Source: a virus
Lineage: Duplodnaviria; Caudoviricetes
Strand: one strand, 5' to 3'
IMG/VR virus record: IMGVR_UViG_3300036376_000009
Location: 25,895 to 89,894 of that record
DNA: 64,000 nucleotides
Shown here: positions 4,243 to 33,764 of the stretch, one piece after another
How the letters are laid out: the number at the start of each line of letters is the position of its first letter
Numbering within the stretch: the stretch's first letter is position 1
Notes under the pieces: model-generated
The model's database searches: none
What the model was told of the DNA's origin: nothing
What the model saw: the letters and a program-made list of their open reading frames with translations, nothing else
Translations under genes and position numbers: made by a program

Positions 4243-7200
4243 CCGACACCCCGCCATCCTGGGCTCAGCGCTACGTCGGCGTCCCGTACGAGGAGCACGA
4301 CTGCTGGGGGCTGGTCCGCCTGATCTACGCCCGCGAGCTCGGCGTGCTGCTGCCGTCGGTGCCCAACCCGCCGGCGCCGCTCTCCCCGGTGGACGAGATC
4401 GAGCGCCGCCGCGCCCTGCTCGTCCAGCACCGCGACCACTCCGGGCTGTGGAAGCGCGTCCCCCTGGCCGACATCGAGGTCGCGGACGTGTGGGTCGGGC
4501 GGGCCGCGGGATCCCCGCACGTGGGCGTGATGGTGGCGACGGGCTGGATGCTGCACAGCCTGGCCGGGACCGGGTGCTGCCTCGAGCGCGTGGCCGCCCT
4601 GAGCTGGGCCGGCCGGAACGACGGGTACTACCGCTTCGCCGGCCCCGTCCGCGTAACGGGCTCGCCGCGGCCGTTTCCCGGCCCCCAGGACGCCCGGATC
4701 GACACCCTGCTCCCGGTCGGGCTCTCGATCGCCGAGGCCCTGGCGGCCGCGGGCGTGGCCCCCTCGCCGCTGCTGCGCGTGTTCGTGGGCGACGTCGAGG
4801 TGCCGGCCGAGTACTGGCCCCGCGTCCGGCCCCGCCCCGGCCGGGTGATCACCGTGGCGGCGGTCCCCGCGGGCGGCGGCGGCGGCAAGACCGCCCTGCG
4901 GATCGTCACCACCCTCGCGCTGGTGGCCGCCGCCGCCGCCATCAACCCCGCCCTGGCGGGGGCCCTGGGCGGCGGGACGCTCGGCACCATCGGCGCCGCG
5001 GTCGTCACCGGCGCGGGCGTGATGGCGGTCGGCCTGGGTCTGAACGCGCTGGCCCCGCCGCCCAAGCAGCGGCTGTCCGATCCGCAGGACCGCGTCAGCG
5101 CCACGGTGACCGGCACGCGCAACGAGCTGCGGGCCTACGGCGTGGTCCCCGCGGTCCTGGGCGCGCACCGCATCGCGCCCGTGTTCGCGGCCGTCCCCTT
5201 CAGCGAGACCGTCGGTGACGACCAGTACCTGCGCTGCCTGTTCATCGCCGGGTACGGGCCGCTCGAGCTCTCCGACATCCGCCTGGGGTCCACGCCGCTG
5301 TCGGAGTTCGAGGGCGTCGAGCTCGAGGTCCGCTCCGGCGCCGCCGGCGAGGACCCAATCCGGCTCTACCCGTCGACCGTCATCGAGGACGACCAGTCGG
5401 CGCTGCTGACCTACGACGCGTCGGGCGGGTGGGTGACGCGCCGGTCCGCCGCCAACGCCGACGAGCTCGCCGTCGAGGTCACCTTCCCCCAGGGCCTCGC
5501 CCGCGTGCGCCGCAACGGGGACCGCGAGAACTACACCGTCGCCGTCGAGGTCGAGTACTCGCCCGCCGGCGCCGGGGCCTGGACGCGGATCAACTCGGCC
5601 AGCCCGTCGTTCTACCGGCAGCTGGACTTCCTCAGCCGCACCCCCGAGTGCGTGTTCGGGGGAGCGACCGCCCACACCGCCCGGATCGCCTGGGGCACCG
5701 GCGCCGGGCTCACGCCCGACGCCCGCCCGGGGTACGTCCCCGGCGCCGGGTACAGCTGGGCGGTCGGCGGCTGGGTCTACGCCCCGACCGCGGGCACGTA
5801 CACGTTCGCCATCGACGGCTCCGACGCGATCGACCTGCACGTGAAGGGACGCGAGGTCGTGAGCTGGTACGGCCAGCACGCGCCCGCGGGCGCGTGGCGC
5901 ACGGGGGCGATCGACCTCGAGGCGGGGTGGCACGCCTTCCGCGTGCGCATGGAGTGCCGGCCCGGGCCCTGGCCCGACGGGGGCGCGATCGCGGTCGGCT
6001 GGCAGCGGCCCGGCGACGGGGCGATCGCGTACATCCAGCCCGCGAGCTTCCGCGACCTGGCGGGTGTTGACATGCAGCTCACCGTCAACTGGTTCGACCA
6101 CTCGCAGTACGACTCTGTCCTGTCCACGACCGAGGCGCGGGTCGGTGACCCCATCCGTCGAACGCTCGCCTGGGCGGTCCCCCGCGGCGAGTACGACGTG
6201 CGCGTTCGACGCGTCACGCCCGAGTCGGCGGACTCGAACATCATCGAGGACGTGTACTTCACCAACCTCCGCACCGTCCGCGGCGAGGACCCGGTGCGGC
6301 TCGCGGGCCTGGCGAAGATCGCGCTGCGGATCAAGGCGAGCGACCAGCTGCAGGGGGTGGTGGACGATCTCAACTGCCTGGCCCGCTCGGTCGTTCCCGA
6401 TTGGGACGCCGCGGCCGGGGCCTGGGTGAACCGCGCCACGAGCAGCCCGGCGAGCCTGTACCGGTGGGTCCTGCAGGGGCCGGCGATCGCCAAGCCCATC
6501 GCCGACGCCCGGATCGACCTGGCCGAGCTCGCGGCCTGGCACGGCGCGTGCGCGGAGAAGGGCCTCGAGTACAACGCGGTGATCGACTTCTCCGGCACCG
6601 TGCTCGAGCGGCTCGCGGAGATCGCCGCCGCCGGCCGCGCCAGCCCCGCCATGCGGGACTCGCTCTACACCGTCGCCCGCGACCGCGTGCTCTCCACGCC
6701 GGTGCAGCACCTCACCCCGCGCAACAGCGCCCGCTTCCGCGGACGCCGGGTGTTCGCGGACGTGCCGCACGCGCTGCGGGTCCGGTTCCTCAACCGCGAC
6801 GTCGACTACCAGCAGGACGAGCGGCTCGTGCTGGACGACGGCTACGTGGTCGACGGCGTCGACGCCTGGGGCAACCCCGCGCCCGGGCTCCCCGAGGCCA
6901 CGGTGTACGAGGTGCTCGAGCTGGCGGGCGTCACCGACCCGGCGCAGGCGTTCAAGCACGGCCGGTACCACCTGGCCACCATGCGTCTGCGATCTGAGAT
7001 CTTCGAGCTCAGCGTCGGGGCCGAGCACCTGGTGTGTAACAGGGGCGATCTTGTGTTGGTCACGCACGACGTCCCGCTCATCGGCCAGGTCGGCGGGCGC
7101 GTCACCCGGCTCGTCACCGACAGCGGCGGCAACCTCGCCGCGGTCCGGCTCGACGAGCGCGTGTCCATGGAGGCGGGCCGCGGGTACCAGCTGCGGGTCC

Positions 7201-14619: not shown

Positions 14620-14815
14620 GGCGGTCCTCCTTGACCGTGACCTCCAGGCCGAGTTCGCGCATGATGGGCAGCAGGTATCGGAGCTTGATGGTCCGACGTC
14701 CCGACAACCACCGGCCGATGACGTCCCTGTCAACGCCGGTCCTGGCTGCCAGCTCCACGATCGTCATCGAGCGGCGGTTGAGCTGCCGAAGCACGGTGTG
14801 CGCGATCTCGTCCAT
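14582..14815 (-). CDS. XRE/Cro-like HTH regulator
   Basis: MTIVELAARTGVDRDVIGRWLSG; divergent from integrase A. Confidence 0.8.
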   Translation of the reverse strand: MDEIAHTVLRQLNRRSMTIVELAARTGVDRDVIGRWLSGRRTIKLRYLLPIMRELGLEVTVKEDRHARPDPRVHRRP

Positions 14816-15045
14816 GGTGGGCCGGCGTGATGCTGACCCACGATCGACCGGCAGTCACCGTCGCGTGCGCCGGGCTGGCGCATACCCGCGTCAAAAACTC
14901 ACACGCGTGTCTTTATGCGGGCTTTGACGTTGAGAACGGACGCGCAGCCGGCGCAGGGACACGCGCTTGTGGGGACTTATCGATGCTGGCGGCACGGCGC
15001 CCAACCGTGCCCGGGGACACCGGGCGGACCGAACAAGATCCTGAG

Positions 15046-16635
15046 ATGGCGGTGAGGTTGGTGTTCGAGTCGGGTGGTACCGAGGTCGAACTCGGAGTTT
15101 TCCGCTTGCGTTTGGAGCATCCAGGTGGCAGGATGGGGGGTATGCCCAGCTCCCCCGCTCATCCGGGAGCAGGCTCGTTCGCCATCCCGAACCCGCAGAC
15201 GGCCAAGGAGCCGGTCCTCGGGCGCATCGATGCGCAGCCGAGTCCGCTCAGTACTTCCGTCGACGCCTGGCTCGCGGCCCTGGCGGCCCGCGGCAAGAAG
15301 CCCAACACGATCAAGGCGTACCGAACGTTCATCGGCTCGGCCATCCGCGAGAACGGGTGGCGGACCCCGGCGGACCTGACGTACGAGGCGGTCACCGCCT
15401 GGATGGCGGGCAAGCGCGAGGCCGGCGTGTGGCAGGGGTCCACCTACAACCGCAACCTCACCGCCCTGCGCTCGCTCACCAAGTTCCTTCGCAGGACCAA
15501 GCGGGCCCGCACCGATGAGCTCGAGGACGCCGAGCGGGCCGAGGACGACGGCGGGCCCGGCTCGCGGGCGGCGAGCACCGACGAGGCCCGCGGCATGATC
15601 CGCCTGGCTTGGGCCCGGGGGCTCTCCGACCGCCGGCGGTCGAACGAGGCGGCCCTCGAGCGGCTGTGCTGTTTCAAAGCCGCGCTGCGATCGAGCGAGC
15701 CGGGCGAGTGGCGGTGGAAGCACCTGCAGCTCGACGCGCCGGTGCCGCACATTGCGTGGACCAAGGACGTGCAGAAGAACCGCCGCGCCCAGGACGTCGC
15801 GCTCGACCCCGAGCTGGTGGAGCTGCTGCGGGCGCACCGCGACGCCCGGCGCGGGGCACCGCCCGTGATGGCGGGCGGGCGCCGCAACGGCAATCCCCAG
15901 CTGCGGCGCGTGGATTCGAACGACCCGGAGGCGTTCGTGTTCGCCAGGCGGGCCAGCCGCACGACGTGGCGCGAGGACCGGGCCCGGCTGCAAATCCCCG
16001 GCGAAGATCACCGCGGGCGGCCCTTCAGCCCGCACTCGGCGCGCAAGTGGTTCGAGACCACGCTGCAGCTCGCCGGCGTGCCCGATCGCCTGGTCGACTG
16101 GCTCATGCGCCACACCGGCGACGTCGGCACCCGGTACCTGGATCCGCCGCTGGACGAGCAGCGGCGCGTGCTCAGTCTGCTGCCCGCGCTCTGGCCCGAA
16201 CAGGCCGGCGGCGGGACCGGCGGGGCGGTTTCGACCCAGCGCCGAAGTTATCCACAACGTGAAGATTCTCTCAGTTCGGACTTGACACCAGCTGGCGGCG
16301 TGCCGAATCTGTCTGTCGCTCATCCGGGGCTTGCCCCCACAGACAACCCGGTTCCGGTCCCGTCGCTGCGCCACACCTCGGATGAGCCCCCACCCCTCGG
16401 TGGGACCGATCGGTGCGCGGCGGGACCGGCTCCGGGACTTTCCCAGGGGCCTGCGGCTCCGAGCTTCGGGAAGCACGTCAGGGACGAGACCACGCGTATC
16501 CGGTCGGAAATGCCGAAACCCGGACTCGGACTTTGGAATTCTAACCCGCGAGTAGCAGCAGCGTTGGCCGGCTTCCTTGACGCGTGGGCGAGGCTCCTGA
16601 AAGCAGGAGCCGAAAGTGAACGCCAAGCGTCTTGA
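15046..16635 (+). CDS. int: Tyrosine integrase A; ORF reads through the att core
   Basis: SAM-like N-domain; catalytic R (AALRSSE), K (VQKN), HSAR, H (LMRH), Y (TRYL). Start codon uncertain. Confidence 0.9.
   Translation: MAVRLVFESGGTEVELGVFRLRLEHPGGRMGGMPSSPAHPGAGSFAIPNPQTAKEPVLGRIDAQPSPLSTSVDAWLAALAARGKKPNTIKAYRTFIGSAIRENGWRTPADLTYEAVTAWMAGKREAGVWQGSTYNRNLTALRSLTKFLRRTKRARTDELEDAERAEDDGGPGSRAASTDEARGMIRLAWARGLSDRRRSNEAALERLCCFKAALRSSEPGEWRWKHLQLDAPVPHIAWTKDVQKNRRAQDVALDPELVELLRAHRDARRGAPPVMAGGRRNGNPQLRRVDSNDPEAFVFARRASRTTWREDRARLQIPGEDHRGRPFSPHSARKWFETTLQLAGVPDRLVDWLMRHTGDVGTRYLDPPLDEQRRVLSLLPALWPEQAGGGTGGAVSTQRRSYPQREDSLSSDLTPAGGVPNLSVAHPGLAPTDNPVPVPSLRHTSDEPPPLGGTDRCAAGPAPGLSQGPAAPSFGKHVRDETTRIRSEMPKPGLGLWNSNPRVAAALAGFLDAWARLLKAGAESERQAS
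16248..16256 (+). promoter_or_regulatory. Perfect DnaA box TTATCCACA
   Basis: Exact consensus, ending 26 bp before TTGACA at 16282; function not shown. Confidence 0.4.
16282..16310 (+). promoter_or_regulatory. Putative promoter inside integrase A 3' extension
   Basis: TTGACA-N17-GAATCT; same 229-bp distance to the att element as the copy at 63731. Confidence 0.55.
16318..16474 (+). ncRNA. Candidate novel pseudoknotted RNA (copy A)
   Basis: P1 16318-29/16376-87, P2 16354-72/16412-29, P3 16389-404, P4 16432-47, P5 16456-74; same topology as 63767-63924; G-U pairs favour the + strand. Confidence 0.6.
16511..16528 (-). other. att junction between prophages A and B (tRNA-3'-end-like fragment)
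   Basis: Reverse complement CGAGTCCGGGTTTCGGCA resembles a T-loop/acceptor 3' end; 20/26 identity with 63955-63980 and shared CGGACTCG. Confidence 0.65.
16592..16611 (+). promoter_or_regulatory. Hairpin occluding the RBS of the first early gene of prophage B
   Basis: GGCTCCTG-AAAG-CAGGAGCC; AGGAG (16605-09) lies in the stem; GTG at 16616. Confidence 0.55.
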
Positions 16636-16954
16636 TCCTGGCAAGACCGGCCGATCCCCCAACCCCCGAAACGGCCCGCCCCCCGGCTCACACCGGCGGG
16701 GAGACGTTCGGCTCGCCGATGCCATCGCCGCCGCCGAGCTGCCGCGATGCGAGTTCTGCGACGGGGAAATGGAGCACGACCCCTACCAGCCGTCCGACCC
16801 CGAGGTCGGGGTTCGGGAGGCCCCGGCCGCGTGGACGTGCTGCCTGTGCGGCCACACCGTCACCGAGCCAACACTGTCCGAACTGAAGGACGCGGCCGAC
16901 GACGCCGCGGTTGACGCGCACCGCATGGGGGTGATCGGGGGTGGCGCGTGCTGA
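16616..16954 (+). CDS. Small zinc-finger protein (first early gene of prophage B)
   Basis: CEFC...CCLC; overlaps the integrase A stop and the next start. Confidence 0.6.
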   Translation: MNAKRLDPGKTGRSPNPRNGPPPGSHRRGDVRLADAIAAAELPRCEFCDGEMEHDPYQPSDPEVGVREAPAAWTCCLCGHTVTEPTLSELKDAADDAAVDAHRMGVIGGGAC

Positions 16955-17910
16955 CCGCTCACCAACTCGAGCAGCGCAAGGGCAAGATCACCGCCTCGCT
17001 CGTCCCCGCCATCTGCGGGCTCGACCCGTGGAAGGGGCCCGTCCAGGCGTACCTGGAAATCACCGGCCGCAAGGTCGAGGAGGCCGAGGGCGAGAACCTC
17101 GCCGCCGAGCTCGGGTCGCTGCTCGAAGAGCCGATCATCCGGCTCACCGAACGCAAGACCGGCCGCAAGATCCGCCGCCGCAACATCTGGCGAGTCCTTC
17201 AGGACGGCCCGCTCGCCGGCAAGGTCGGCGCCACGCTCGACTGCGACTACGACGTCGACACCGACTACGGCGAGATCAAGACCAACGGCGTGCTCTCGGG
17301 CTTCGGCATCAACAGCGGCTGGGGCGAGGAAGGGACCGACGAGGTCCCCGAAAAGGTCCACATCCAGATCGCCGCGCAGATGCTGGTCTGCCCCGAGAAG
17401 CAGCTCTGCATCGTGCCCGCCCTGGTCGGACGCAAGAACGGGCTGACCATCTACAAAGTGCACCGCAACAAGGACCTGGTCGAGGCGGTCGGTGACCGCA
17501 TCGCCCGGTTCTGGCGCGACCACATCGAGCCGGACGTGATGCCGCCGCTCGAACAGCCCGCCGACGCCGAGTACATCACGGAGCTGACCAGGTCGCTGCC
17601 GGTCAGGACTGAGCCGGTGGCGATCGACCCGGCCCTGTGCATGGAGTACGACAACTTCCGCGCGATGGAGAAGGCCGGCGAGGAAGGCAAGAAGATCGCC
17701 GCGGCCAAGATCAAGCTCGCCCTCAACGGCGCCGAGATCGGCACGGCGAGCGGGTTCAAGGTCAGCTGCAAGCGCCCCAAGGACAGCCTGGTGTTCGACC
17801 GTGAGACGTTCGAGGCCGAGCAGCCCGAACTTTTCTCCCGGTACACGGTCGCACGCCCCAACTCCCCCCGTCTGCTCGTGACGGCGGAGAAGAAGGCGGT
17901 GACCACGTGA
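16948..17910 (+). CDS. YqaJ-like (lambda exonuclease family) recombination nuclease
   Basis: RKGKITAS.VPAICG..PW; GATLDC..EIKT; QIAAQM. Confidence 0.9.
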   Translation: MLTAHQLEQRKGKITASLVPAICGLDPWKGPVQAYLEITGRKVEEAEGENLAAELGSLLEEPIIRLTERKTGRKIRRRNIWRVLQDGPLAGKVGATLDCDYDVDTDYGEIKTNGVLSGFGINSGWGEEGTDEVPEKVHIQIAAQMLVCPEKQLCIVPALVGRKNGLTIYKVHRNKDLVEAVGDRIARFWRDHIEPDVMPPLEQPADAEYITELTRSLPVRTEPVAIDPALCMEYDNFRAMEKAGEEGKKIAAAKIKLALNGAEIGTASGFKVSCKRPKDSLVFDRETFEAEQPELFSRYTVARPNSPRLLVTAEKKAVTT

Positions 17911-18941
17911 GCCAGATCAACCCCCACAACGTCAGGCGTTCCGCCACCGGCGACACCAGCGGCGCCACCAAGCCCGCCAAGCCCATCGAGACGTTCAAGC
18001 AGACGCTGGCGCTCATGGAGAAGCGGATCGCGGGCGTGCTCCCCAAGCACATCACCCCCGACCGCATCCTCAAGGCCGCGATGGTGGCGGCGTACAAGAA
18101 CAACAAGCTCTACCAGTGCACCCAGCTCAGCATGATGAACGCCATCATGACCGCGGCTCAGCTCGGGCTCGACCCGGGCGGGGCGCTGGGCAGCGCCTAC
18201 CTGGTCCCCTACGACCGCAAGCGCAAGGACGCCAACGGCACATGGGTCTACTCCCACACCGAGTGCCAGCTCATCATCGGCTACCAAGGCATGATCGACC
18301 TCGCCCGCCGCTCGGGCGAGATCGAGAGCATCGCCGCCATCCCGGTGTTCGATGGCGACCAGTTCGACATGGAGCTGGGCACCGAAGCGAAGATCAGCCA
18401 CAAGCCCAACGTCAAGGCTGTTCGGACCGTTGACACGCTGGTGCTGGTCTACGTGGTGGCGAAGTTCCGGGGGCCAGACGGCGCGCCCGCCGGCTTCCAC
18501 GTCGAGTGGATGAGCAAGGCCGAGATCGACGCCATCCGCCGGCGGAGCAAGGCCGCCGACGACGGGCCGTGGGTCACCGATCCGATCGAGATGGCCCGCA
18601 AGACGTGTGTGCGGCGGGCGTTCAAGTACCTTCCCAAGTCGATCGAGCTGCTCGCGAAGCTCGCCGAAATCGAGGCCGAGGGCACCGACGCCGGGGCGCT
18701 GGCCGACATCTTCGACACCACGGCGACGCCGATCGAGCCCGAGCCCGCGGCCGACGCGGCGCCCGCGCAGACCGAGACGGCTCAGCTGCCGGAACCCGCC
18801 AACGTGAACCCGCTGCCCGGCGTGTTCAAGGACGCCCAGGAGGGCCGCACCGAGGCCGCGATGCAGCAGCAGGCGAGGCCGTCGCGGGCGGCCGCCACCG
18901 CCGCCAAGCTCAACGGCAACCACGGCGGACCGCCCGCCTGA
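17907..18941 (+). CDS. recT: RecT single-strand annealing protein
   Basis: LPKHITPDR, AQLGLDP....AYLVPY, QLIIGYQGMIDLARRSG, EMARKT. Confidence 0.95.
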   Translation: MSQINPHNVRRSATGDTSGATKPAKPIETFKQTLALMEKRIAGVLPKHITPDRILKAAMVAAYKNNKLYQCTQLSMMNAIMTAAQLGLDPGGALGSAYLVPYDRKRKDANGTWVYSHTECQLIIGYQGMIDLARRSGEIESIAAIPVFDGDQFDMELGTEAKISHKPNVKAVRTVDTLVLVYVVAKFRGPDGAPAGFHVEWMSKAEIDAIRRRSKAADDGPWVTDPIEMARKTCVRRAFKYLPKSIELLAKLAEIEAEGTDAGALADIFDTTATPIEPEPAADAAPAQTETAQLPEPANVNPLPGVFKDAQEGRTEAAMQQQARPSRAAATAAKLNGNHGGPPA

Positions 18942-19016
18942 TCCGTGCTTCTTCTTCCTCCCGGTGCGCGGGGGTTCGTGCCCCCGCCGCCGGATTCTGA
19001 GCCCAGGAGTCTGCCC

Positions 19017-19403
19017 ATGCCCCAGAAAGAACTGAGCGTCGCCACGATCAACGAGATGGAGGACGGCCGGATCGCCGCCGAGTTCAACCGCGAACTGTCA
19101 GCGCTCGCCAAGGACTGCTACTCCCGGCCCGGCGACAAGCGCCCGCGACAGGTGACGCTGAAGGTCACCATCAAGCCCATCATGGACCGCGACGGCCGCT
19201 GTGACAGCGTCAAGCTGACCGCGGACGTGAGCTCGAAGATGCCCGACCTGCGCAGCCCCGAATACGTCGGCATGCTCAAGCCGTCGGGCGTCATCCAGAT
19301 CCAGACGACCAAGGGCCTGCACGCCGAGCCCAACCAGCTGTCGCTTGAAGACGAGGCGGCCCGGCGCAAAGGCGACCCGCCGAACAGCGGCCCGGCCCGG
19401 TAA
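19017..19403 (+). CDS. Conserved phage early protein ('replication terminator'-annotated family-like)
   Basis: AGGAG RBS; EFNREL..LAKDC..RP..K.RQVTLKVTIKP. Confidence 0.6.
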   Translation: MPQKELSVATINEMEDGRIAAEFNRELSALAKDCYSRPGDKRPRQVTLKVTIKPIMDRDGRCDSVKLTADVSSKMPDLRSPEYVGMLKPSGVIQIQTTKGLHAEPNQLSLEDEAARRKGDPPNSGPAR

Positions 19404-19456
19404 CACGGTCGCCACGCCAACCGCACGCCACCAGCCACCTCACACAGGAGATCCCC

Positions 19457-20269
19457 GTGGACCTGAACGCTGCCCTCAACACGCTCATCAAGATTGGCCA
19501 GGACGGGAAGCAGAGGCTTCCCGAAGTCACGACCCAGCCGTATCTGCCTTCGGACACGCTGCTGGTTCGCCGCAACGACGAGGCGCCGTCGCTGCTCGTC
19601 ATCAAGAAGCCGCGGCTGTACACCTCATCGACCATTCAGGGGTTCTGCGAGGCCCTCAACTACCTCCGCAAGCAGGTCAAGCCCGATGCGGGCCCGGTGT
19701 TCGTCACCGTCGGCTCCACCGGCATCGTCGCAATCCTGGGCGAGGAAGATCGCCGCGACGTGCTCCAGATGCCGCTGACCTACTCGGCGGCGTACGACCT
19801 GCTCAACGAGCCCAAGGACATGACCCAGGACGAGACCGTCGCCGCGGTCCGCGAGCTGTTCAACCAGAACATCAGCCCCAATATCCTGGGCCAGCTCCGC
19901 ACCATCCGCTTCAACTTGAGCAACGGCGGCGAGGGCAACATCGAGACCAGCCGCACGTCGTTCCGGGCCGAGACGGTCATGGAAATCAGCGGCCTGGGCT
20001 CCGACTTCCCCGACCAGGTCCTTGTCAGCCTTGTGTGCTTCAACGAGCTGTACTTCGGCCCGGTGAACGCCACCGGCGTGCAGGCCACGCTGCGCATCAA
20101 CATCCCCAAGGCCCGGTTCAGGTTTGTGCCGCTCGCTGGTGAGCTCGAATCGGCCGAGGCGGTCCAGCTCAACGCGGCCGCCACCTACATCCGCCAGCAG
20201 TGCGGCGAAGCGGTCTTCGTCGCCACCAACACCATCGCCGGTGAGTACGAGTACGCCGCTTCGGAGTGA
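19457..20269 (+). CDS. Conserved phage early protein (DUF2303-like partner of the previous gene)
   Basis: AGGAG RBS; gene-pair arrangement common in phage recombination modules (inference). Confidence 0.5.
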   Translation: MDLNAALNTLIKIGQDGKQRLPEVTTQPYLPSDTLLVRRNDEAPSLLVIKKPRLYTSSTIQGFCEALNYLRKQVKPDAGPVFVTVGSTGIVAILGEEDRRDVLQMPLTYSAAYDLLNEPKDMTQDETVAAVRELFNQNISPNILGQLRTIRFNLSNGGEGNIETSRTSFRAETVMEISGLGSDFPDQVLVSLVCFNELYFGPVNATGVQATLRINIPKARFRFVPLAGELESAEAVQLNAAATYIRQQCGEAVFVATNTIAGEYEYAASE

Positions 20270-20383
20270 GACACCTCCATTCGTGCCGCCCGCCGGGTCG
20301 CGATTGCCCGGCGGGCGGATTCCCGCGGGGCGGCGCTGTTGCCGCCCTCCCGGCCCGACTGCCCGCCCGGCGGTCGGCCCTTT

Positions 20384-21202
20384 ATGCCGAACTCCGCTCG
20401 CCCGCTCACGCTCGCCCAGGCGAGGTCGCGACGTGCGCAGTTCGGCAGATACGCCGGTGAGTCGCTCGGTTGGATCGAGCGGCACGACCCGTCGTACCTC
20501 GTCCAGCTCGCGGCGTGGACTGGCCTGAAGGACCCGTTCCGCTCCGCCGTCGTCCTCGTCGTCGTCGCCATGAGCGACAGAACCCAGGAGCCACCTATGG
20601 CCGGCAACCCGCCCAGTGCACGCCCCAAGCCCGTCAGTCTCAACGCCGAGCAGCTGCTGTTCCTCGCCGTGCTCGAGTCTTGGCCGACCATCCCACAGAC
20701 CTACCCCACCAGCCTCATGGTCCAGGAGGCGTGCGCCCCGCACGTGTGCGACGAGAGCCCGCTCTGGGAAGGGCGGTTGATCCAGGACGCCAAGCACATC
20801 CCCGGCGTCGAGGTCCAGAAGCGCTACGCGCTCACGATCACCGCCGCCGGCAGCGCGGCCCTGCGCAACGCGTTCGCGACGTGCATCAAGCACCAGCAGG
20901 TCAGATGCCAGGAGTGGGCGGCGCGCGGGCAGACCGACGCCGTCGCGCTGGGGAACCAGCTCATCGAGCGGTTGCAGGCGTGGTACTCCGAGCACGTGCA
21001 GGGGATCGGGGCGGCTCGCCTGCATCCCGGCCAGGTGGACCCCGCGGACCTGGACGCGCTGGCCGGCGCGACCGACGCGGGGGTGGTTTCGGCCGGGCCC
21101 GCGGACGGTGGGGGGCGTCAGGGCGCCGGCCCCGCGAGCCCCCCGCCCCCGCGCCGTCGCGACGGGGCTGCTGCTGGGGGTGGTGGGGGTGGTGGGGGAT
21201 GA
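20384..21202 (+). CDS. Hypothetical protein with N-terminal DUF3820-like motif; possible internal start near 20597
   Basis: FGRYAGESLGWIERHDPSYL; second AGGAG+ATG in frame at ~20587-20599. Confidence 0.5.
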   Translation: MPNSARPLTLAQARSRRAQFGRYAGESLGWIERHDPSYLVQLAAWTGLKDPFRSAVVLVVVAMSDRTQEPPMAGNPPSARPKPVSLNAEQLLFLAVLESWPTIPQTYPTSLMVQEACAPHVCDESPLWEGRLIQDAKHIPGVEVQKRYALTITAAGSAALRNAFATCIKHQQVRCQEWAARGQTDAVALGNQLIERLQAWYSEHVQGIGAARLHPGQVDPADLDALAGATDAGVVSAGPADGGGRQGAGPASPPPPRRRDGAAAGGGGGGGG

Positions 21203-21426
21203 GCGCTTCGCGGGACGCCATGGTCGAGCGGGCCCGCCGAGCGGCGCTGATTCGGCTGCTCGTCCGGGACAGGGCGACGTCGACGGAACTGGACCGGCTA
21301 TACGCCGGGCGCCGAGACGCGGCGGCCGCCGACGTGAACAGGCTGAGACAGGACGGGTTCCGCATCGAGGTTGAACCCGAGCGGCTCCGGCTTGTTCGAG
21401 GCGCGGCGGCCGTTGGACGCCGCTGA
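21199..21426 (+). CDS. Small winged-HTH protein
   Basis: LIRLLVRDRATSTEL.......AADVNRLRQDGFRIE; ATG overlaps previous stop. Confidence 0.55.
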   Translation: MSASRDAMVERARRAALIRLLVRDRATSTELDRLYAGRRDAAAADVNRLRQDGFRIEVEPERLRLVRGAAAVGRR

Positions 21427-21511
21427 ACGCGATTCCACACACGCCTTTCGCGCGGGGGACACCCCGGGAGGGCGTTTCGCACGGGGACGGGGGCGACCAG
21501 GAGCCGATGCC

Positions 21512-21916
21512 ATGCACAGCGCAGGCGTGGAAAGCGATTCTGCCCCGATCACGCACGATTTGAGCGGGGCTCCCATCACGACTGATTCCAGCACCATCAC
21601 GCACGATCCCGCCAGAGCGCCGGAGCCGGCGGGCCAGATTCCGCCGCCGCCGATCACGTCGCCGTTCGACTCGCGGCCGCAGCGCCCGACCGTCGGCCGC
21701 ATCGTCCACTACTACCCCGGCAACGTGTGTGAGACGAGCAAGGGCCAGCCGTATCCGGCCATCATCACGCACGTGATCAGCGATCGCGTCGTCAACCTTC
21801 GCATCTTCCAGGACGCGCAGCACCCGCTGCCGGTCAGCGAGTTGACCCAGGCCGAGGTGGTGAGTGCGGAGCCGGGCATGGCGGGGCGGCGCTGGTGCTG
21901 GCCGCCGCGCGGCTGA
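21512..21916 (+). CDS. Conserved small phage protein with repetitive N-terminus
   Basis: RPTVGRIVHY..PAIITHV...VNLRIF..WCWPPR; ITxD repeats; AGGAG RBS at 21499. Confidence 0.65.
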   Translation: MHSAGVESDSAPITHDLSGAPITTDSSTITHDPARAPEPAGQIPPPPITSPFDSRPQRPTVGRIVHYYPGNVCETSKGQPYPAIITHVISDRVVNLRIFQDAQHPLPVSELTQAEVVSAEPGMAGRRWCWPPRG

Positions 21917-22056
21917 TCAATTCGGGCCGGTAGGCGCAGATCGGAAGGGTTCTTCACAGTCTTCATGACTTCCGTGAAACGGGCGCCCACGCCTTCAAGT
22001 GGCATACCGGCCTTTTCAATGCGTCACCTTTCACCGCCCGGGTTCCCGGGTAGGAG

Positions 22057-22479
22057 TTGTCCATGAGATCCGCGCGTGGTTCGCAGGGGGCTCGGGGGAA
22101 TTCGTTGCTCGGGAGGTTGGCGCTCGTTATGGCCGCGGCCGTGGGGCCGGGCCTCATTCTGAGCGCGGGCGCGGTGGCCGCGTTCTCGAGCGCAGTGCCG
22201 GCCCGGGCCGTTGTGCCAGAGCCGGCGGAGGTTGACCCGCTCGGGCTGTACCCGGGGTGCCGGTTCGCGGTTGTGTTCTGGGACGGCTCGTACTTCCTCT
22301 GCGCGGACGCCGACGAGGCCGCGGACGTGTTCGCCCGGTTCCCGTACCTCGCCGACTCGGTTCGCCGCATGGGCGACCTGGACCAGGACCCCGACTTCTG
22401 CGGCTGGTTCGGGTACCAGTTCAGCCGCTCGCGCCCGCGCCTGACGCTGCACATCGTGGCGGCGGGGGCGGAGGGTTGA
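22057..22479 (+). CDS. Hypothetical membrane-anchored protein
   Basis: AGGAG RBS at ~22052; hydrophobic N-terminal segment. Start may be ATG at 22063. Confidence 0.5.
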   Translation: MSMRSARGSQGARGNSLLGRLALVMAAAVGPGLILSAGAVAAFSSAVPARAVVPEPAEVDPLGLYPGCRFAVVFWDGSYFLCADADEAADVFARFPYLADSVRRMGDLDQDPDFCGWFGYQFSRSRPRLTLHIVAAGAEG

Positions 22480-22623
22480 TCGTTTGGCCGGTGGGGCAGA
22501 CGGGCGGCTTCGCGAGTGCCACGCCCAGACACGGGCCCCCGCGCGTTCGAGACGCGAACCGGCCATTACCTGCGTGATCCGACGCAATCGGACCGCTCAA
22601 TCAATCAGAAAGCGAGGTGCCAC

Positions 22624-22635
22624 ATGAAGAACTAA
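22624..22635 (+). other. SD-led minigene ATG AAG AAC TAA (MKN)
   Basis: GAGGT at 22614-18, 5 nt before ATG; followed by a terminator-like hairpin. Confidence 0.4.
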
Positions 22636-22664
22636 CTCACGAACCTTCCGCAAGCAGTCCTGCC

Positions 22665-22698
22665 CCCCGCGCCCGCGTACACGCGAGCGCGGGGTTTT
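22665..22698 (+). terminator. Intrinsic terminator-like hairpin
   Basis: CCCCGCGC-C-CGCG...CGCG-A-GCGCGGGG followed by TTTT. Confidence 0.65.
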
Positions 22699-22726
22699 GA
22701 ACGACGAGAGACGCAAGGAGTTGATC

Positions 22727-22876
22727 ATGAGAACCGAACACGAGCGTGCGGAGCAGCAAGCGCTGAGCCACGCGGAACACACCAAGTACGTCGCGCTGAT
22801 ACTGCTGGCCGCAGCAGTCGCGCACGCCCTCGGCATCCTGGTTGGCAACGGCAGCATCGGCGGGTGGTTCCGGTGA
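22727..22876 (+). CDS. Small single-TM protein (49 aa; not in ORF track)
   Basis: AAGGAG RBS; YVALILLAAAVAHALGILVG; stop overlaps the next GTG. Confidence 0.55.
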   Translation: MRTEHERAEQQALSHAEHTKYVALILLAAAVAHALGILVGNGSIGGWFR

Positions 22877-24612
22877 GCTTCCTGCCCAGCGCTGCCCGCG
22901 AGCAGCACATCGCCATCACCGGCAAGACCGGCAGCGGCAAGACCACGACGGCCAAGAGCATCGTGGAGCAGGACCTGGACGCCGGGCTCCCTGTCGCCGT
23001 CATCGACCCCACGTCGGCCTGGTGGGGCCTCCGCTCATCGGCGGACGGCAAGAGCCCGGGCTACCCCGTGGTCGTCCTCGGCGGGGATCACGCCGACGCC
23101 CCGCTGTCGCCGCTGTCGGGCAAGGCGTGCGCGGCCCTGGTCGCGAACGACCGTGTGTCCGCGATCTTCGACGTGCGCGAGCTGATGGTGAACGAGCGCA
23201 ACCGGTGGTTCACCGACTTCGCCACGGAGCTGTTCCGGGCGAACCGCTCCCCGCTCCGCCTGGTGCTGGACGAGGCTCACCTTTTCGCGCCTCAGGGCAA
23301 GGTTCCCGACCCCGAGACGGGGAAGATGCTGCACGCCGCCAACACCATCGCCAGCAGCGGGCGCTCGCGCGGCATCCGGTGCCTGTGGATCACGCAGCGC
23401 CCGGCGAAGCTGCACAAGGACACGCTCACGTGCGCCGACACGCTCATCCCCATGCGGGTCATCGCGCCCCAGGACCGCGACGCGATCGAGGCATGGGTCC
23501 TCGGATGCGGCGACAAGGCCAAGGGGCGGGAGGTGCTGGACTCGCTCGCCCAGCTCGCCCGCGGCGAGGGGTGGGTGTGGTTCCCCGAGGGCGGCGTCCT
23601 CAAGCGGATGCAGTTCCCGGCGATCCGGACGTTCGACTCGTCGGCCACACCGACCGGGGGCGAGGCGCCGGCGAAGCCCAAGACGTTGGCGGAGATCGAC
23701 CTGTCGGCGATCACGGCGAGCATGGCCGCGGCCGTCGCCGAAGCCGAGGCGAACGACCCGAAGAAGCTGCGGGCCGAGCTCGATCGCGTGAAGGGCGAAT
23801 TGAAGAAGGCCCTGGCGACGCCGGTGAGTGTGGCGCCGGAGGAAATGACCCGGCTGCGCCGCCGCACCGAGAACCTCGTCGCCGACCTGAATGACGCGCT
23901 GCTCAAGCTCAAAGGCATGCGAGACGCCGCAGACGGCGTGGACACGACGATCAACTCGATCACAAGCACGCTCGCCGCGGACCCAGCCCACCCACTGCAC
24001 GAGCCCAACGACTACGCGCAGCTTCCGGCAGAGGCCGCCGTGAAGCCCCGCAACTACTTCCTCAACGAGGCGCACACAACCCACGTTCCCCGATCTGCCC
24101 CCACAGCACGGGTTGCCCGTCCCCCGGGGGAATCGCCCCCCGGGGGCGGACTCGGCCGCGGTGAACGCGCCATCCTGACCGCGTGCGCCCAGTACCCCGA
24201 GGGGTGCGACCGCGTCCAGCTCGGTGTCCTCACCGGCTACGCGCGGTCCAGCCGCGATGCCTACCTGCAGCGGCTTGCACAGCGGGGGTTGGTCACCCGG
24301 GACGAGCCGATCAGGGCCACGCCCGCGGGAATCGAAGCGCTCGGCGACTTCGAACCGCTGCCGAGGGGGTCGGCGCTGCGGGACCACTGGCTCAAGACCC
24401 TGCCCGAGGGTGAGGCGCGGATCCTCAGGGTGTGTATCCAGGCGTGGCCCGAGCCCGTCGCCCGCGAGACACTGAGCGACCGCACCGGCTACGCCCGTTC
24501 GTCCCGCGATGCGTACGTGCAGCGGCTGGGAGCCAAGAAGCTGGTCGTTACAAGCGTCTTGGGCGTCGCTGCCAGCCCCCGGCTGTTCGACGACTGGAAG
24601 GGGGTTGATTGA
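22873..24612 (+). CDS. HerA/FtsK-like (DUF87) ATPase with two C-terminal wHTH repeats
   Basis: GKTGSGKT Walker A, VLDEAH Walker B, ITQRPA; duplicated TGYARSSRDAY.QRL. Confidence 0.85.
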   Translation: MSFLPSAAREQHIAITGKTGSGKTTTAKSIVEQDLDAGLPVAVIDPTSAWWGLRSSADGKSPGYPVVVLGGDHADAPLSPLSGKACAALVANDRVSAIFDVRELMVNERNRWFTDFATELFRANRSPLRLVLDEAHLFAPQGKVPDPETGKMLHAANTIASSGRSRGIRCLWITQRPAKLHKDTLTCADTLIPMRVIAPQDRDAIEAWVLGCGDKAKGREVLDSLAQLARGEGWVWFPEGGVLKRMQFPAIRTFDSSATPTGGEAPAKPKTLAEIDLSAITASMAAAVAEAEANDPKKLRAELDRVKGELKKALATPVSVAPEEMTRLRRRTENLVADLNDALLKLKGMRDAADGVDTTINSITSTLAADPAHPLHEPNDYAQLPAEAAVKPRNYFLNEAHTTHVPRSAPTARVARPPGESPPGGGLGRGERAILTACAQYPEGCDRVQLGVLTGYARSSRDAYLQRLAQRGLVTRDEPIRATPAGIEALGDFEPLPRGSALRDHWLKTLPEGEARILRVCIQAWPEPVARETLSDRTGYARSSRDAYVQRLGAKKLVVTSVLGVAASPRLFDDWKGVD

Positions 24613-24800
24613 GCGCCCCAACCAAGACATCCGGCACCATGTTCCGCTGCCCGAACTGCAAGCGGCCGACGCTCTGCCGCGTGCTCGGCTCCGAATCGAA
24701 GCCGCCGCGGTTCGAGCGGACGAGGCAGCGCGAGTGCCGCGAGTGCGCGCACAGGTTCGTCACCCGGGAAGTGTTGGTGTCCGCAGGGGAAGCCTCATGA
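24609..24800 (+). CDS. Ogr/Delta- or NrdR-like zinc-ribbon protein
   Basis: CPNC...RQRECRECAHRFVTRE. Confidence 0.75.
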   Translation: MSAPTKTSGTMFRCPNCKRPTLCRVLGSESKPPRFERTRQRECRECAHRFVTREVLVSAGEAS

Positions 24801-25711
24801 GCAGCCGCGAGATCACGGCCGTCGCCGGGTGGTTCGGGTCCAACCGCATGCACCCCGAGCGGGTTGGGCTCGAGCTCGGCGAGCTGGACTGGTGTGGCGT
24901 CCCGTGTGTCGGGGGCGGGCCGGAGCTGCCGCACATCAACTGCCGATCGGGCGTGGCCAACGACCTGCACCGGCACGTCATCAACCTCTACCGGGTGCTC
25001 AAGTCGGATGAGCTGTGCGCCATGGCCGCGGAGCAGCTCGACCGAACGCTCTTTCACCAGGACGAGTTCGCCGACGCGCAGGAGCGGTGCCTCATGCGCG
25101 AACGTGACCGCACCAAGCCGTGGCGTCTGACCGCCGACTTTGAGCCCGAGCCCGGGAAGGTGTACAGCCACGAGCAGGTCGACCCGGCCGATGCCGTCGC
25201 GTGGGCCGTCGACTACGCCGTCGCGTGCTGGATGGGACCCGGGGCCAGGGCCGGCAAGCGCGACGAGTTCCGGGCGTACTTCTCGTCCAGGTGGACGGCT
25301 ACGGGCGGCGCCAGCGTGAAGCGGTTCCGATCGTGGATCGAGTCCATGTACGGCTGGCGGGACGTCCTGAAGCGGTGGGAGTTCCGCTGCATGGACGCGT
25401 TCGACTTCATCCATGCGTGCAAGGACACCGCGGGGCACGGGCTGTACGTCGACTTCCCGTGGGTGAAGGCGGGCGTGGATTACCGCCACCCGTTCAACGA
25501 GGCCCAGCACCGGGACGGGGCTCAGCTGCTCAGCCGGTTCAAGGCATGCCGCGTCGTGATCCGGTACGACGTGTGCCCGCTCATCGAGGAGCTGTACCCG
25601 CGAAGCCGGTGGACGTGGATTGAGGCCACCACCCGGAACCAGAGCAACGGCGAGACGCACGAGGTTCTGCTCATCAACGGGCCGAGCCGCACGGCCGGGG
25701 TGGTGGCATGA
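24797..25711 (+). CDS. Dam-like (D12 class) DNA adenine methyltransferase, atypical motifs
   Basis: WFGSN, VPCVGGG, NDLHRHVINLYRV, LYVDFPW, EVLLIN. Confidence 0.75.
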   Translation: MSSREITAVAGWFGSNRMHPERVGLELGELDWCGVPCVGGGPELPHINCRSGVANDLHRHVINLYRVLKSDELCAMAAEQLDRTLFHQDEFADAQERCLMRERDRTKPWRLTADFEPEPGKVYSHEQVDPADAVAWAVDYAVACWMGPGARAGKRDEFRAYFSSRWTATGGASVKRFRSWIESMYGWRDVLKRWEFRCMDAFDFIHACKDTAGHGLYVDFPWVKAGVDYRHPFNEAQHRDGAQLLSRFKACRVVIRYDVCPLIEELYPRSRWTWIEATTRNQSNGETHEVLLINGPSRTAGVVA

Positions 25712-26268
25712 GAGCGCGGCATTGGTACCACTGCACCGATCGGCGCAGCGACTCGGAATGGGTTGCCCAGCGCCGCGCGCCGCTCATTCGGGCTGACAGC
25801 GAGCCCGAGACGCCACGACTGTGCGTGGCGCCCAGCGTCGCTCAGGCCCTGGTGGCCGTGTGGTGGTTTCGAGACGTGACGGTGTACATCACGCCCATGC
25901 GGCGCACCGTGCCGCCCAGCGGCGTGTTCGACGCCTGCATGACCCAGGAGCGATGGATCATCCCGCCCGTCAAACTGACGCGCGTGGGCGTCATCCCGTT
26001 CGACTCGATCCACCCCGTGCAGCTTGAGTCCGATCCGAGGGAATACCCCGGCTACCGGGCGTGGGAGAGGCGGGCGTTCCGGCTGGAAGGCCTGTGTCGC
26101 GCTGTTCGAGCCCACCTGCCTGATGCCCACGCGCCCAGCGTCGAACGGTTCGCGGCCAAGTGCCGAGAGTTCTTCGACGCCAAGCAGTGCGAATTGGAAG
26201 AGGAGCGGGCCAAACAGTGGGGCCTGGACGAGCCAGAGTTGCCGGCACGGCGGGAGGTGCTGCCATGA
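25708..26268 (+). CDS. Hypothetical phage protein
   Basis: Coupled overlaps with both neighbours; EPETPRLCVAPSVAQAL. Confidence 0.6.
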   Translation: MRARHWYHCTDRRSDSEWVAQRRAPLIRADSEPETPRLCVAPSVAQALVAVWWFRDVTVYITPMRRTVPPSGVFDACMTQERWIIPPVKLTRVGVIPFDSIHPVQLESDPREYPGYRAWERRAFRLEGLCRAVRAHLPDAHAPSVERFAAKCREFFDAKQCELEEERAKQWGLDEPELPARREVLP

Positions 26269-26735
26269 AGTGCCTCTCCCTCTGGCAGCCGTGGGCCTCG
26301 CTGATCGCGGTCGGGGCAAAGCTCATTGAGACGCGGTCGTGGTCTACCTCGCACCGTGGCCCCGTAGCCATCCATGCCGCCGCCCTATGGGGACACAAGC
26401 AGTATCAACTGTGCCATTCCGGCGTGTTCTATCGAGCCCTGTCTGCCGGCGGCGCGTTTGTCCCCGACATGCGCACGCCCCGGCGGCGCCCGCCCTTCTG
26501 TCTGCCCTTGGGGTGCATCGTCGCGGTCGCCAAGGTGGTCGACTGCTTCCAGATCACCCCGATGTCGCGGCCGCTGGATGATCGTGAGCTCGCCTTCGGC
26601 AACTACGAGACGGGCCGGTACGGCTGGGAGCTGTCGGACATCGTCCGCCTTGAGCGCCCCATTCCCTTCAAGGGCCGCCAAGGACTGTTCACCCTTCCCC
26701 CCGACGTCGTCGGGCAACTCCCGGAGACCGCATGA
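26265..26735 (+). CDS. ASCH domain protein
   Basis: LSLWQPWASLI..G.K.IETRSW...HRGPVAIHA; KGRQGLF. Confidence 0.9.
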   Translation: MKCLSLWQPWASLIAVGAKLIETRSWSTSHRGPVAIHAAALWGHKQYQLCHSGVFYRALSAGGAFVPDMRTPRRRPPFCLPLGCIVAVAKVVDCFQITPMSRPLDDRELAFGNYETGRYGWELSDIVRLERPIPFKGRQGLFTLPPDVVGQLPETA

Positions 26736-27052
26736 GCTTGCAAAGAAAGCGACTGAAGCGCCGGCTCGCGGTTGCCAGTGATCAGGCGGCGGCTGCGCGC
26801 AAAGCCGCGCAGTTGTGGAGCGAGCGGGCTTCCGAGCTTGAGCGGGAACTGATGAACGCACACAAGGCGTTCGAGGCGATCGGCGGGGTGAGTGTTCGTC
26901 GCGACTACTGCACTGATCGGGTGCGGGTTGAGTTCGGAGTCGACCAGCGGTCATGGGACCACGCCAGTCGGACGGATGCGCGGACCACGGACTTGGCGAA
27001 CTACATCGCGGACGCCATCGCCTGCCACATTCGCAAGGGATTGCCCCGATGA
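26732..27052 (+). CDS. Hypothetical coiled-coil protein
   Basis: ATGA overlaps on both sides. Confidence 0.55.
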   Translation: MSLQRKRLKRRLAVASDQAAAARKAAQLWSERASELERELMNAHKAFEAIGGVSVRRDYCTDRVRVEFGVDQRSWDHASRTDARTTDLANYIADAIACHIRKGLPR

Positions 27053-27678
27053 GCATCGGCACCCGCATCCCGCACCCGACCGCGCTGGCCCTCGCCAACA
27101 GCCTCATCGCCCTGTGGGGCGGCCGGGCCAATCCGCACGGCCTGGTGGCGGTTGGCTCCGTTCGCCGGCGCCGGGCCAGCTCGGGAGACCTGGACCTGCT
27201 CTGCCCGCTCCCGGCCAAAGGGCAGCCCGACCGGTTGTACCAGGAGCTGGTGGGCGAGGCCAGGCCGACGCTGTTCTCCGCCGCCGAACCCGACATCACC
27301 GTCAAGGAGATCAGCGGGCTCAAGAAGGGGTTCCGCACCGCGACGTTCAGCGTCTACTGCCGGTCGCTCAACATCCGGGCGTTCGGCGTGCAGCTGCACC
27401 GGGCCGAGGCTGACAACTTGGGGTGGGCCGCGATCCTGCGCACCGGCCCCGAGGATTTCGGCCGCTGGTTCTTGTGGAGATGGAAGGACGTGATGCGGAT
27501 CGCGCCGAGCGGCCGGGCGAGCGACACGTACCTGCTCGACATGTACGGCAAGCCTGTAAAGGGCTTCAGCGAGACCGAGCTCATCAAGCGGGTCGCGCCC
27601 GAGTACATCGAGCCGAACAAGCGGGACGAGTTCATGGAGAAGAAGAACGCCGAGAGGCGGGATGGAGGGACGTGGTGA
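27049..27678 (+). CDS. Minimal PolX-family nucleotidyltransferase (palm + thumb only)
   Basis: GSVRRR....GDLDLL, ILRTGPEDF, SETELI..YIEP..R. Confidence 0.85.
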   Translation: MSIGTRIPHPTALALANSLIALWGGRANPHGLVAVGSVRRRRASSGDLDLLCPLPAKGQPDRLYQELVGEARPTLFSAAEPDITVKEISGLKKGFRTATFSVYCRSLNIRAFGVQLHRAEADNLGWAAILRTGPEDFGRWFLWRWKDVMRIAPSGRASDTYLLDMYGKPVKGFSETELIKRVAPEYIEPNKRDEFMEKKNAERRDGGTW

Positions 27679-28022
27679 AACGATCAAGTGACAATCGGTT
27701 GTGGGTGTGTCGGAACGGGCACATCGTGCGAGACAAGGCCCTGTCGGGGCAGGAGTGCCGGCGGTGCCGCGCCAATGAGAAGAGGCGCCGGACGACAAAG
27801 AACCGCGTGACATGGGAACCGGCAGATGGGAAATTGAGGGGGCGGTGGTATGCCAACGTTGGGACCGTGACCCGAGCCGACGGCAAGAAGTACAACGTGT
27901 TCCTGACTGTCCTGCGACGCGACCTTGAGCGGGTGATGCGATCGTTTGGCCGCGACACGTTGCTCGTTGAATCCGCCCCTGCCTGCCGAACGCGGTTCAA
28001 GTTCGAGGAACAGCCCGCATGA
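27675..28022 (+). CDS. Hypothetical zinc-finger protein
   Basis: CRNGH...CRRC; overlapping start and stop. Confidence 0.55.
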   Translation: MKRSSDNRLWVCRNGHIVRDKALSGQECRRCRANEKRRRTTKNRVTWEPADGKLRGRWYANVGTVTRADGKKYNVFLTVLRRDLERVMRSFGRDTLLVESAPACRTRFKFEEQPA

Positions 28023-29563: not shown

Positions 29564-29594
29564 CCTTTGCCCCACCCCTTCAACGAACCAGGCC

Positions 29595-30605: not shown

Positions 30606-30841
30606 TCAAGATCCATGTCCCGCTCGCGATCGACGGCACCATCTGGGAGGTGGCGCAGGGCCAGGGCAAGTGCGCCGAGGTGGCGCTGGAGCACCTGGAC
30701 AAGGCGTTCAAGCTCGCACGGTTGATGGTGGACGCTCAGCCGGACGCGGCGTTCAGCTCGGGAGAGTTCGAGATCACACTGAGCGTGGTCGCGCTCATCG
30801 CACCTTCGGGGGACGTCCCCGCTTCTTCTTCGGGCCGGTAG
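30602..30841 (+). CDS. Small hypothetical protein
   Basis: Coupled to the initiator stop (GTGA). Confidence 0.45.
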   Translation: MIKIHVPLAIDGTIWEVAQGQGKCAEVALEHLDKAFKLARLMVDAQPDAAFSSGEFEITLSVVALIAPSGDVPASSSGR

Positions 30842-31109
30842 GAACAGGCTTGGCCTTCTTCGGCCGGGCGCCCAAGTAGACGCCGACGGGGTTGGGGATG
30901 AGGGCCGCGGCCTGGTCCTTCGACCAGAGCCACGACTTGCCGATCATCTGCACCGGGTGCACGCCGCGTGAGCCGGCGATTTGCAGCAGGCGGCGGCGCG
31001 AGACGCCGACCAGCTCGGCGAGCTGGACGGTCGAGACGAGTTGGTCGGCCCGGATACCCGGGATCGGCTTGGCTTCCACGGCGTGAGGGTAGGGGGGTGG
31101 GGCCGACAT
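30795..31109 (-). CDS. HTH_17/MerR-like DNA-binding protein with C-terminal AT-hook
   Basis: VSTVQLAELVGVSRRRLLQI...IGKSWLW; KKKRGRPPK. Confidence 0.7.
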   Translation of the reverse strand: MSAPPPYPHAVEAKPIPGIRADQLVSTVQLAELVGVSRRRLLQIAGSRGVHPVQMIGKSWLWSKDQAAALIPNPVGVYLGARPKKAKPVPTGPKKKRGRPPKVR

Positions 31110-31118
31110 CGGTAGGGC

Positions 31119-32422: not shown

Positions 32423-32467
32423 AAGCCCCCGCCCCGGGCGTCAACCCGAGGCGGGAGGGAGAGGAGT

Positions 32468-33655: not shown

Positions 33656-33736
33656 ATGCGACCACCTTTCGTGAATCAATGCGCCCCCCACCCCAACCCA
33701 TGCAGATTCCACAAGAATCCGCACGCTCATCGGTCA

Positions 33737-33764
33737 AATATACCCACGTTGGAAGTGCTGTCAA
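33737..33764 (-). promoter_or_regulatory. Leftward sigma70-type promoter for the DUF932 operon
   Basis: Minus strand TTGACA-N16-TATATT in an AT-rich patch. Confidence 0.65.

Follow-up and report, generated by a model that had tools for sequence, protein, structure and literature searches.

The last 64 kb of an 89.9-kb virus record (IMGVR_UViG_3300036376_000009), which we analysed as one 64,000-nt window, carry two tyrosine integrase genes, both on the plus strand and 40% identical to each other; inside the 3' tail of each reading frame lies a conserved element that resembles a sigma-70-type promoter and is aimed at the phage attachment site (attP). From the comparisons below we consider it probable, at roughly 0.6, that both sites are tail promoters whose transcript crosses attP into the early operon while the phage is circular, and that integration uncouples the two.

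Predicted promoters inside two integrase tails

16282-16310, plus strand: predicted tail promoter, copy A, TTGACA-N17-GAATCT (-35 at 16282-16287, -10 at 16305-16310); in-frame Leu-Thr; weakest -10 of the family; 8/12, below the consensus-scan threshold
63731-63759, plus strand: predicted tail promoter, copy B, TTGACA-N17-GATAGT (-35 at 63731-63736, -10 at 63754-63759); in-frame Leu-Thr; 10/12 in the consensus scan
15133-16635, plus strand: integrase A reading frame; Pfam and PHROG integrase matches; catalytic part to near 16200; tail spans the hybrid attachment (att) core and stops in the left arm of phage B
62615-64000, plus strand: integrase B reading frame; Pfam and PHROG integrase matches; tail spans the tRNA 3' end; TGA stop in the anticodon-loop complement
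62546-62574, plus strand: candidate integrase B promoter, TTGCCA-N17-GATACT; 9/12 in the consensus scan
16506-16516, no strand: hybrid att core (GGAAATGCCGA), which fuses A's P arm to B's P' arm; shares AATGCCGA with 63958-65; L094 and L096, two related loci described below, split at the equivalent point
63960-64000, minus strand: 3' part of tRNA-Met (CAT); identical to the tRNA-Met of locus L001 and of 80-odd Phycisphaerae genomes; the window end cuts the gene

A sequence-only reading of this window had placed TTGACA at 16282 and at 63731, in both cases 229 bp from a tRNA-end element (16511 and 63960), with unrelated DNA in between. The positions are exact, TGCCGA of the element beginning at 16511 and 63960, and over the 223 nt from hexamer to anchor the two copies are no more alike than shuffled sequences (59% gapped identity against 57 ± 2%; 28% in register). 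TTGACA occurs eight times on the plus strand of the window, and the chance of a second copy at one given offset is about 1e-4. Both sites are aimed at att, as had been said, the one at 63731 reading toward antisense tRNA at 63960, an orientation seen again in L001 and L096; a point absent from that reading is that both hexamers fall inside integrase reading frames. Its reliance on the exact 229-bp spacing does not hold up: the distance from hexamer to core codons is only roughly conserved in relatives, at 210-228 nt in steps of 3 in most loci, and the equality in the window is therefore partly a coincidence within a conserved range. What had been called a tRNA-end element at 16511 matches only loosely (AATGCCGA, four mismatches, CGGACTCG) and falls short of a complete tRNA 3' end. 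Across the whole window the consensus scan returned three promoter-like sites, at 33764 (minus), 62546 (plus) and 63731 (plus).

Phage B extends from about 16511 to 63960, and the 3' limit of the window at 64000 falls inside the tRNA-Met gene. Since the identical 3' end of this gene recurs in about 90 stretches from genomes of Phycisphaerae and other Planctomycetota, we take Phycisphaerae (Planctomycetota) to be the host group; of the about 90 Phycisphaerae stretches, L001 alone has a related integrase adjoining the identical tRNA-Met. A and B form a tandem array in which A's tail promoter lies 334 nt upstream of B's early genes, the slot in which it had been proposed to sit.

Conservation as DNA across the integrase family

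A HMMER profile search recovered 217 integrase representatives at E ≤ 1e-30, most of which align to the very end of the tail; a word-based protein search gave three relatives only, and the alignment of the two window integrases, used as query, found no matches in genome contigs or viral contigs. Sequences in the 60-member integrase alignment differed too much to serve in searching for loci, and two narrower alignments were used for locus retrieval, giving as comparison set the DNA of 24 non-redundant loci. MAFFT left the hexamers of the raw tails unaligned, and the comparison was anchored on motifs. The codons change character at the start of the tail, with G+C content at third codon positions (GC3) above 0.9 before an LPxLWP motif and about 0.5 after it, and both integrase frames remain open through the core. 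Beyond LPxLWP the tails have in common, in this order, a ..DLTxGGxxAED.. block, the core codons (..EMPxxG..) and, ahead of the stop, ..ADLLEALARLLR...

Within 200 nt after LPxLWP, the pattern TTGAC[AT]-N17/18-nAnnnT is present in 18 of the 24 loci; its density there is 3.75 per kb, compared with 0.026 per kb in the remainder of these loci (144-fold). The six remaining loci have TTGAAT, TTGCAA, TTGCGA or TTGGAC together with TATTCT, GATACT or CAACAT. The -35, a 6/6 match to the consensus in both window copies, is TTGACA in 14 loci and TTGACT in four, TTG is kept in all 24, and the spacer is N17 or N18 throughout (24/24). At the -10, A2 and T6 are invariant across at least 12 different hexamers, A5 is found in most, and T1 is confined to the TATTCT variants.

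Such a pattern might arise by chance, or as a conserved peptide motif of the integrase tail, ..DLTxGGxxAED.., that is meaningless as DNA: both window copies have the hexamer in frame, and Leu-Thr is the majority consensus in the 60-protein family alignment. The codons argue otherwise. Leu is TTG and Thr is ACA or ACT in every one of the 16 in-frame loci, compared with 9% of Leu codons (TTG) and 13% of Thr codons (ACA plus ACT) in the catalytic part; the fixed synonymous positions extend to GAT/CAT/TAT, and the residues encoded by the -10 differ (ED, DD, HD, HY, EY, HH, EH) with nAnnAT retained. In two loci, L102 and L115, the hexamer is retained in frame +1, where it is read as Val-Asp-Ser. 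Because the codons are fixed and the hexamer stands out of frame in these two loci, the constraint acts on DNA and not on the peptide. The codon and frame data thus contradict the peptide-motif explanation and, with the excess over background, leave chance or peptide almost no probability. The pattern that is conserved (TTG, then A2 and T6, 17-18 nt apart) has the information profile of sigma-70-type promoters and does not resemble that of a peptide. What had been proposed as promoters at two positions stands as a conserved sigma-70-type element, as DNA, in the whole integrase family, with predicted promoter activity.

The tRNA-Met genes of the host Phycisphaerae (L004-L093) have a TAnnnT box shortly before the mature 5' end, with TTGnnn 16-18 nt upstream in 32 of 82, and since these genes show TAnnnT -10 boxes the host appears to use this type of promoter.

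A covarying helix directly after the -10

16318-16329 pairing with 16376-16387, plus strand: first helix (P1), copy A; begins 7 nt past the -10
63767-63775 pairing with 63817-63825, plus strand: first helix (P1), copy B; begins 7 nt past the -10

A first helix of 9-19 bp that begins 2-7 nt past the -10 and encloses 39-66 nt was found in 22 of 23 scored loci, its sequence varying by locus; random positions in the same loci reach at least 9 bp in only 10%. In an alignment of eight sequences the helix is 100% paired and 9 of its 11 pairs show compensatory changes, a degree of covariation that none of 500 shuffles reached and that collapses in slid controls. Both window helices begin at the transcription starts predicted in the sequence-only reading (near 16317 and 63766), and a helix right after the -10 is consistent with a transcript beginning there. 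The leader as a whole, about 190 nt, has folding z-scores averaging -3.6 and is more stable as the sense than as the antisense strand in 9 of 13 loci; the G-U pairs of its other helices favour the sense strand, and the wobble pairs of the first helix give no strand decision.

Strong structure and covariation would also be expected if the promoter were real and its main product, in both the circular and the integrated state, were a structured RNA of ~190 nt with a role in regulation or immunity, or else, in the lysogen, one that extends antisense into tRNA-Met. The operon would then be driven mainly by integrase or non-consensus promoters, with no switch through the tail promoter. The leader matches no Rfam family, which leaves such a function free. 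We regard this explanation as unlikely, with the DNA beyond the leader bearing on it in both directions.

From the leader across the core into the early operon

16592-16618, plus strand: hairpin containing the GGAG ribosome-binding site (RBS) of the first early gene; 16592-16599 pairs with 16604-16611, GTG start at 16616; from folding and comparison of 15 attP-form loci
16616-30605, plus strand: phage B early block, 14 kb, with Zn-ribbon-like open reading frame, exonuclease, RecT, DNA methyltransferase and DnaB-like helicase
16616-16954, plus strand: small Zn-ribbon-like open reading frame, first gene of the phage B early block
16948-17910, plus strand: YqaJ/RecE-like exonuclease, phage B early block
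17907-18941, plus strand: RecT, phage B early block
28019-29563, plus strand: DnaB-like helicase, phage B early block

The leader stops at the core, and nearly all attP forms run on from there directly into a co-directional operon, which speaks against a free-standing RNA as the main product. Of the 16 attP-form loci, 15 have a co-directional next gene that starts -94 to +3 nt from the integrase stop; L110, where the next gene lies about 390 nt further on, is the sole exception, and the identity of the first gene differs between loci. Nothing terminator-like of the intrinsic kind was found in 14800-17200, hence none between 16282 and 16616, and a structured-RNA product has to contend with the lack of an intrinsic terminator from the leader to the core or first gene. 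It must also do without an alternative plus-strand consensus promoter ahead of the 14-kb block: the scan of 16500-34500 on that strand gave none, although non-consensus promoters are possible, and its null result includes 16529-16615, where a separate promoter would have told against the sequence-only reading. TTGACG at 16577 was considered as a separate early promoter and rejected, having a poor -10, lacking conservation and being the Leu-Asp-Ala coding of the conserved tail peptide.

In attP-form integrase frames about 35 codons follow the core, closing with the conserved ..ADLLEALARLLR.. peptide, and the C-terminal ..AWARLLK.. of integrase A is kept in relatives through synonymous codon changes. 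The attP forms terminate in ..ARLLR.., again with synonymous variation, whereas integrase B in the window terminates in ..MPRGGLEPPTSGL within the tRNA; proteins with C-terminal ..MPRGGLEPPTSGL are prophage forms at tRNA-Met. Both states of a single phage are represented by L094 (attP form) and L096 (integrated), which are near-identical up to GAAATCGGCATT; past it, L094 continues into the ..ARLLR.. tail and phage genes, and L096 into unrelated DNA with an early stop.

Two observations on these tails may be added. The integrated flank of L096 is not a tRNA (L094:3860-3920, L096:3860-3900), and the core of this subfamily is a palindrome (CCTGAAAT CGGC ATTTCAGG in L095) that can also be folded as a hairpin across the crossover point. 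Separately, attP-form integrase C-termini (alignment A4) have Gly, Ala or Ser as last residue in 37 of 49 cases (..AG, ..SA, ..AS, ..AA); these ends may act as a degradation tag that integration removes, or may result from the overlap with the next gene.

In the hairpin ahead of the first early gene, the Arg-Leu-Leu codons of the integrase tail pair with GGAG. It is found, with differing arm sequences, in about a dozen of the 15 attP-form loci (besides the window, L002, L003, L094, L098, L100, L102, L110, L116 and L121), and suggests that translation of the first early gene is coupled to that of the integrase tail in its attP form. Such a hairpin would limit translation from tail-promoter transcripts, and the tail promoter faces the early operon in the tandem array without apparent harm; both points favour the structured-RNA explanation.

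The roughly fixed distance to the core

Part of the evidence could instead reflect attP architecture, with the TTGACA block bound, as an arm-type site, by integrase or by a directionality factor, and with its distance to the core set by the geometry of the recombination complex. That distance stays at 210-228 nt in most loci across sequence that is unconserved. In phage B, GAATC occurs five times in 228 nt (63722-63949) against 42 times in 89.9 kb; three of these motifs bracket the -35, the spacer and the start region of the tail promoter, and two adjoin the core. These motifs may be arm sites for integrase, through which the tail promoter could be repressed. Copies of TTGACAGA or of TTGAATCC-like sequence precede the core by 18-36 nt in L001, L098, window B and L094, and the core of the Myxococcus phage Mx8 is flanked by three copies of GTGACAGCGG.

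An arm site would, however, leave unexplained the second hexamer at N17/18 with its exact A2 and T6 across 12 sequences, and equally the covarying helix 2-7 nt past the -10; moreover, arm sites come multiply, and most loci have a single TTGAC[AT] per attP. We therefore hold it improbable that the block is an arm site and no promoter. The two functions are in any case compatible, since arm sites that overlap a promoter would give autoregulation, as PMC2951348, on intS, indicates for the left attachment site (attL) of the KplE1 prophage.

A proposed coupling through attP

In our preferred reading, that of a tail promoter coupled to the early operon through attP, a single frame holds in order the catalytic integrase, the tail promoter, the leader, the att core (here the tRNA-Met 3' end), ~35 codons and the RBS hairpin. 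In the circular or attP form, RNA initiated at the tail promoter, like that of the integrase promoter, would cross the core into the co-directional recombination and replication operon. On integration the promoter and leader would stay at the integrase end, reading outward and antisense into the tRNA, and the hairpin and operon would end up 47 kb off at the opposite end of the prophage. Integration would thus break the link between tail promoter and early operon; either excision or a new infection would restore it. The sequence elements, their conservation as DNA, the covariation of the helix, the gene order of the attP forms and the occurrence of one phage in both states are observed; promoter activity, the start site, read-through of the core and the role as the operon's main promoter are inferred.

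Several points weigh against this reading. The -10 of copy A (GAATCT) is poor and fails the consensus scan, and the -10 of the tail promoters mostly lacks the T1 that is present in host tRNA promoters. Watson-Crick pairs alone leave the strand of the first helix undecided, the assignment to sense coming only from the z-scores and from G-U pairs in the remaining helices. An attP arm element would be expected to keep a roughly constant distance from the core, which a promoter does not need. The RBS hairpin suggests that the first gene depends for its translation on ribosomes that come through from the integrase frame, and these would be absent on tail-promoter transcripts. Finally, were A's promoter constitutive, it would express B's replication genes in the lysogen, unless expression is stopped by repression of the promoter or by the leader or hairpin. 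Because A's promoter still joins B's operon in the tandem array, B's early genes must be silenced in some other way, and disconnection is not their sole control. The integration-based switch put forward earlier consequently survives in part: the promoter is conserved and aimed at att, and the operon is co-directional in 15 of 16 attP forms, but the tandem array speaks against pure disconnection, and a role in the lysis/lysogeny decision is hypothetical.

A bolder version would make the tail promoter, leader and hairpin one cis-acting device that needs an intact attP, the leader enabling entry into the early operon either as an antiterminator or through base-pairing with the hairpin's 5' arm, which would free the RBS, with recombination and not a repressor as the primary lysis/lysogeny gate across the family. 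RNAalifold does propose pairing of the leader with the hairpin 5' arm, with little covariation. We entertain this version tentatively and think it rather unlikely.

Further features of phage B

Just past the DnaB-like helicase gene, three 65-nt direct repeats with GATGCTCCGRGCATC palindromes lie at 29973-30190 and form a candidate iteron-type replication origin. The best consensus promoter in the window, at 33737-33764 on the minus strand (TTGACA-N16-TATATT, 11/12), faces a minus-strand gene cluster at 30795-33730; it may be a promoter for lysogeny or immunity.

Comparison with known systems

The silencing of early genes in temperate phages is usually attributed to a repressor. Here one stretch of DNA would be coding sequence, promoter, structured RNA and recombination site at once, a compact case for overlapping constraints, and the family supplies 24 natural variants on which promoter and RNA can be tested. 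It is also a possible first regulatory handle on phages of the Planctomycetota, a phylum with almost no phage genetics.

The sequence-only reading had compared the arrangement with integration-dependent immunity in phage BPs. That analogy is loose: in BPs, Brujita and Charlie attP lies in the repressor gene and integration strips a degradation tag (PMC9262239; Broussard et al. 2013). The two designs share an attP within a gene, a tRNA target and integration that rewires, or here would rewire, the lysogeny decision; they differ in that attP here lies in the integrase gene and the promoter is split from the operon. By Pfam and PHROG annotation, no repressor gene adjoins the integrase core at the window locus. 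Closer are the Mx8 intP/intX pair, Pcirc of ICEclc and Porf7 of Tn916.

A further partial likeness is sib of phage lambda, an RNase III site that lowers int expression. There too a cis RNA element beyond attP is joined to int only in the non-integrated state; unlike sib, the linkage here is of a promoter upstream of att to an operon downstream.

In Mx8, according to the part of PMC6070905 that treats it, attP lies inside int. As in our loci, the core falls within the 3' region of the integrase frame, integration exchanges the C-terminus, a tRNA serves as target, prophages are found in tandem, and int is followed by co-directional early genes, in Mx8 with a DnaC-like gene among them. Magrini et al. 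(1999) reportedly found that integration turns intP into intX. A scan of the Mx8 int tail gave no consensus promoter, we know of no report of a promoter or leader spanning the Mx8 attP, and tblastn at E ≤ 1e-3 found no integrase match in GenBank phages, Mx8 included. Within Mx8 (L125, AF396866), the three GTGACAGCGG copies lie at 6360-6600 around a tRNA-Asp-like core inside the int tail, and the core is adjoined by a 13-bp minus-strand hairpin with a T-run, probably a phage-supplied terminator for the rebuilt tRNA gene.

The removal of a promoter from a replication or recombination operon by integration is documented for Tn916 and ICEclc, and we know of no case in tailed phages. For ICEclc, the relevant part of PMC5812530 (citing Sentchilo et al. 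2003) states that excision puts the outward-facing Pcirc upstream of intB13. As far as that account goes, ICEclc likewise has an outward promoter beside att that is fused to genes of the far end in the circle only. It differs in what is driven: Pcirc drives the integrase gene, whereas our promoter is itself embedded in an integrase gene, with recombination and replication genes as its presumed targets.

For Tn916, the part of PMC11658703 concerned (citing Celli and Trieu-Cuot 1998) describes Porf7 as driving the conjugation genes only once the element is excised and circular. Tn916 differs in being conjugative, with a non-specific target; our elements are tailed temperate phages with a site-specific attP, and in them the predicted promoter and its leader are embedded in the integrase reading frame. 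Within the limits of that description, what the two have in common is a promoter at one end that points outward when the element is integrated, target genes at the far end without a promoter of their own (here, without a plus-strand consensus promoter in 16500-34500), a circle that joins both across att, and a cis RNA element, in Tn916 an antiterminator, between the promoter and its targets.

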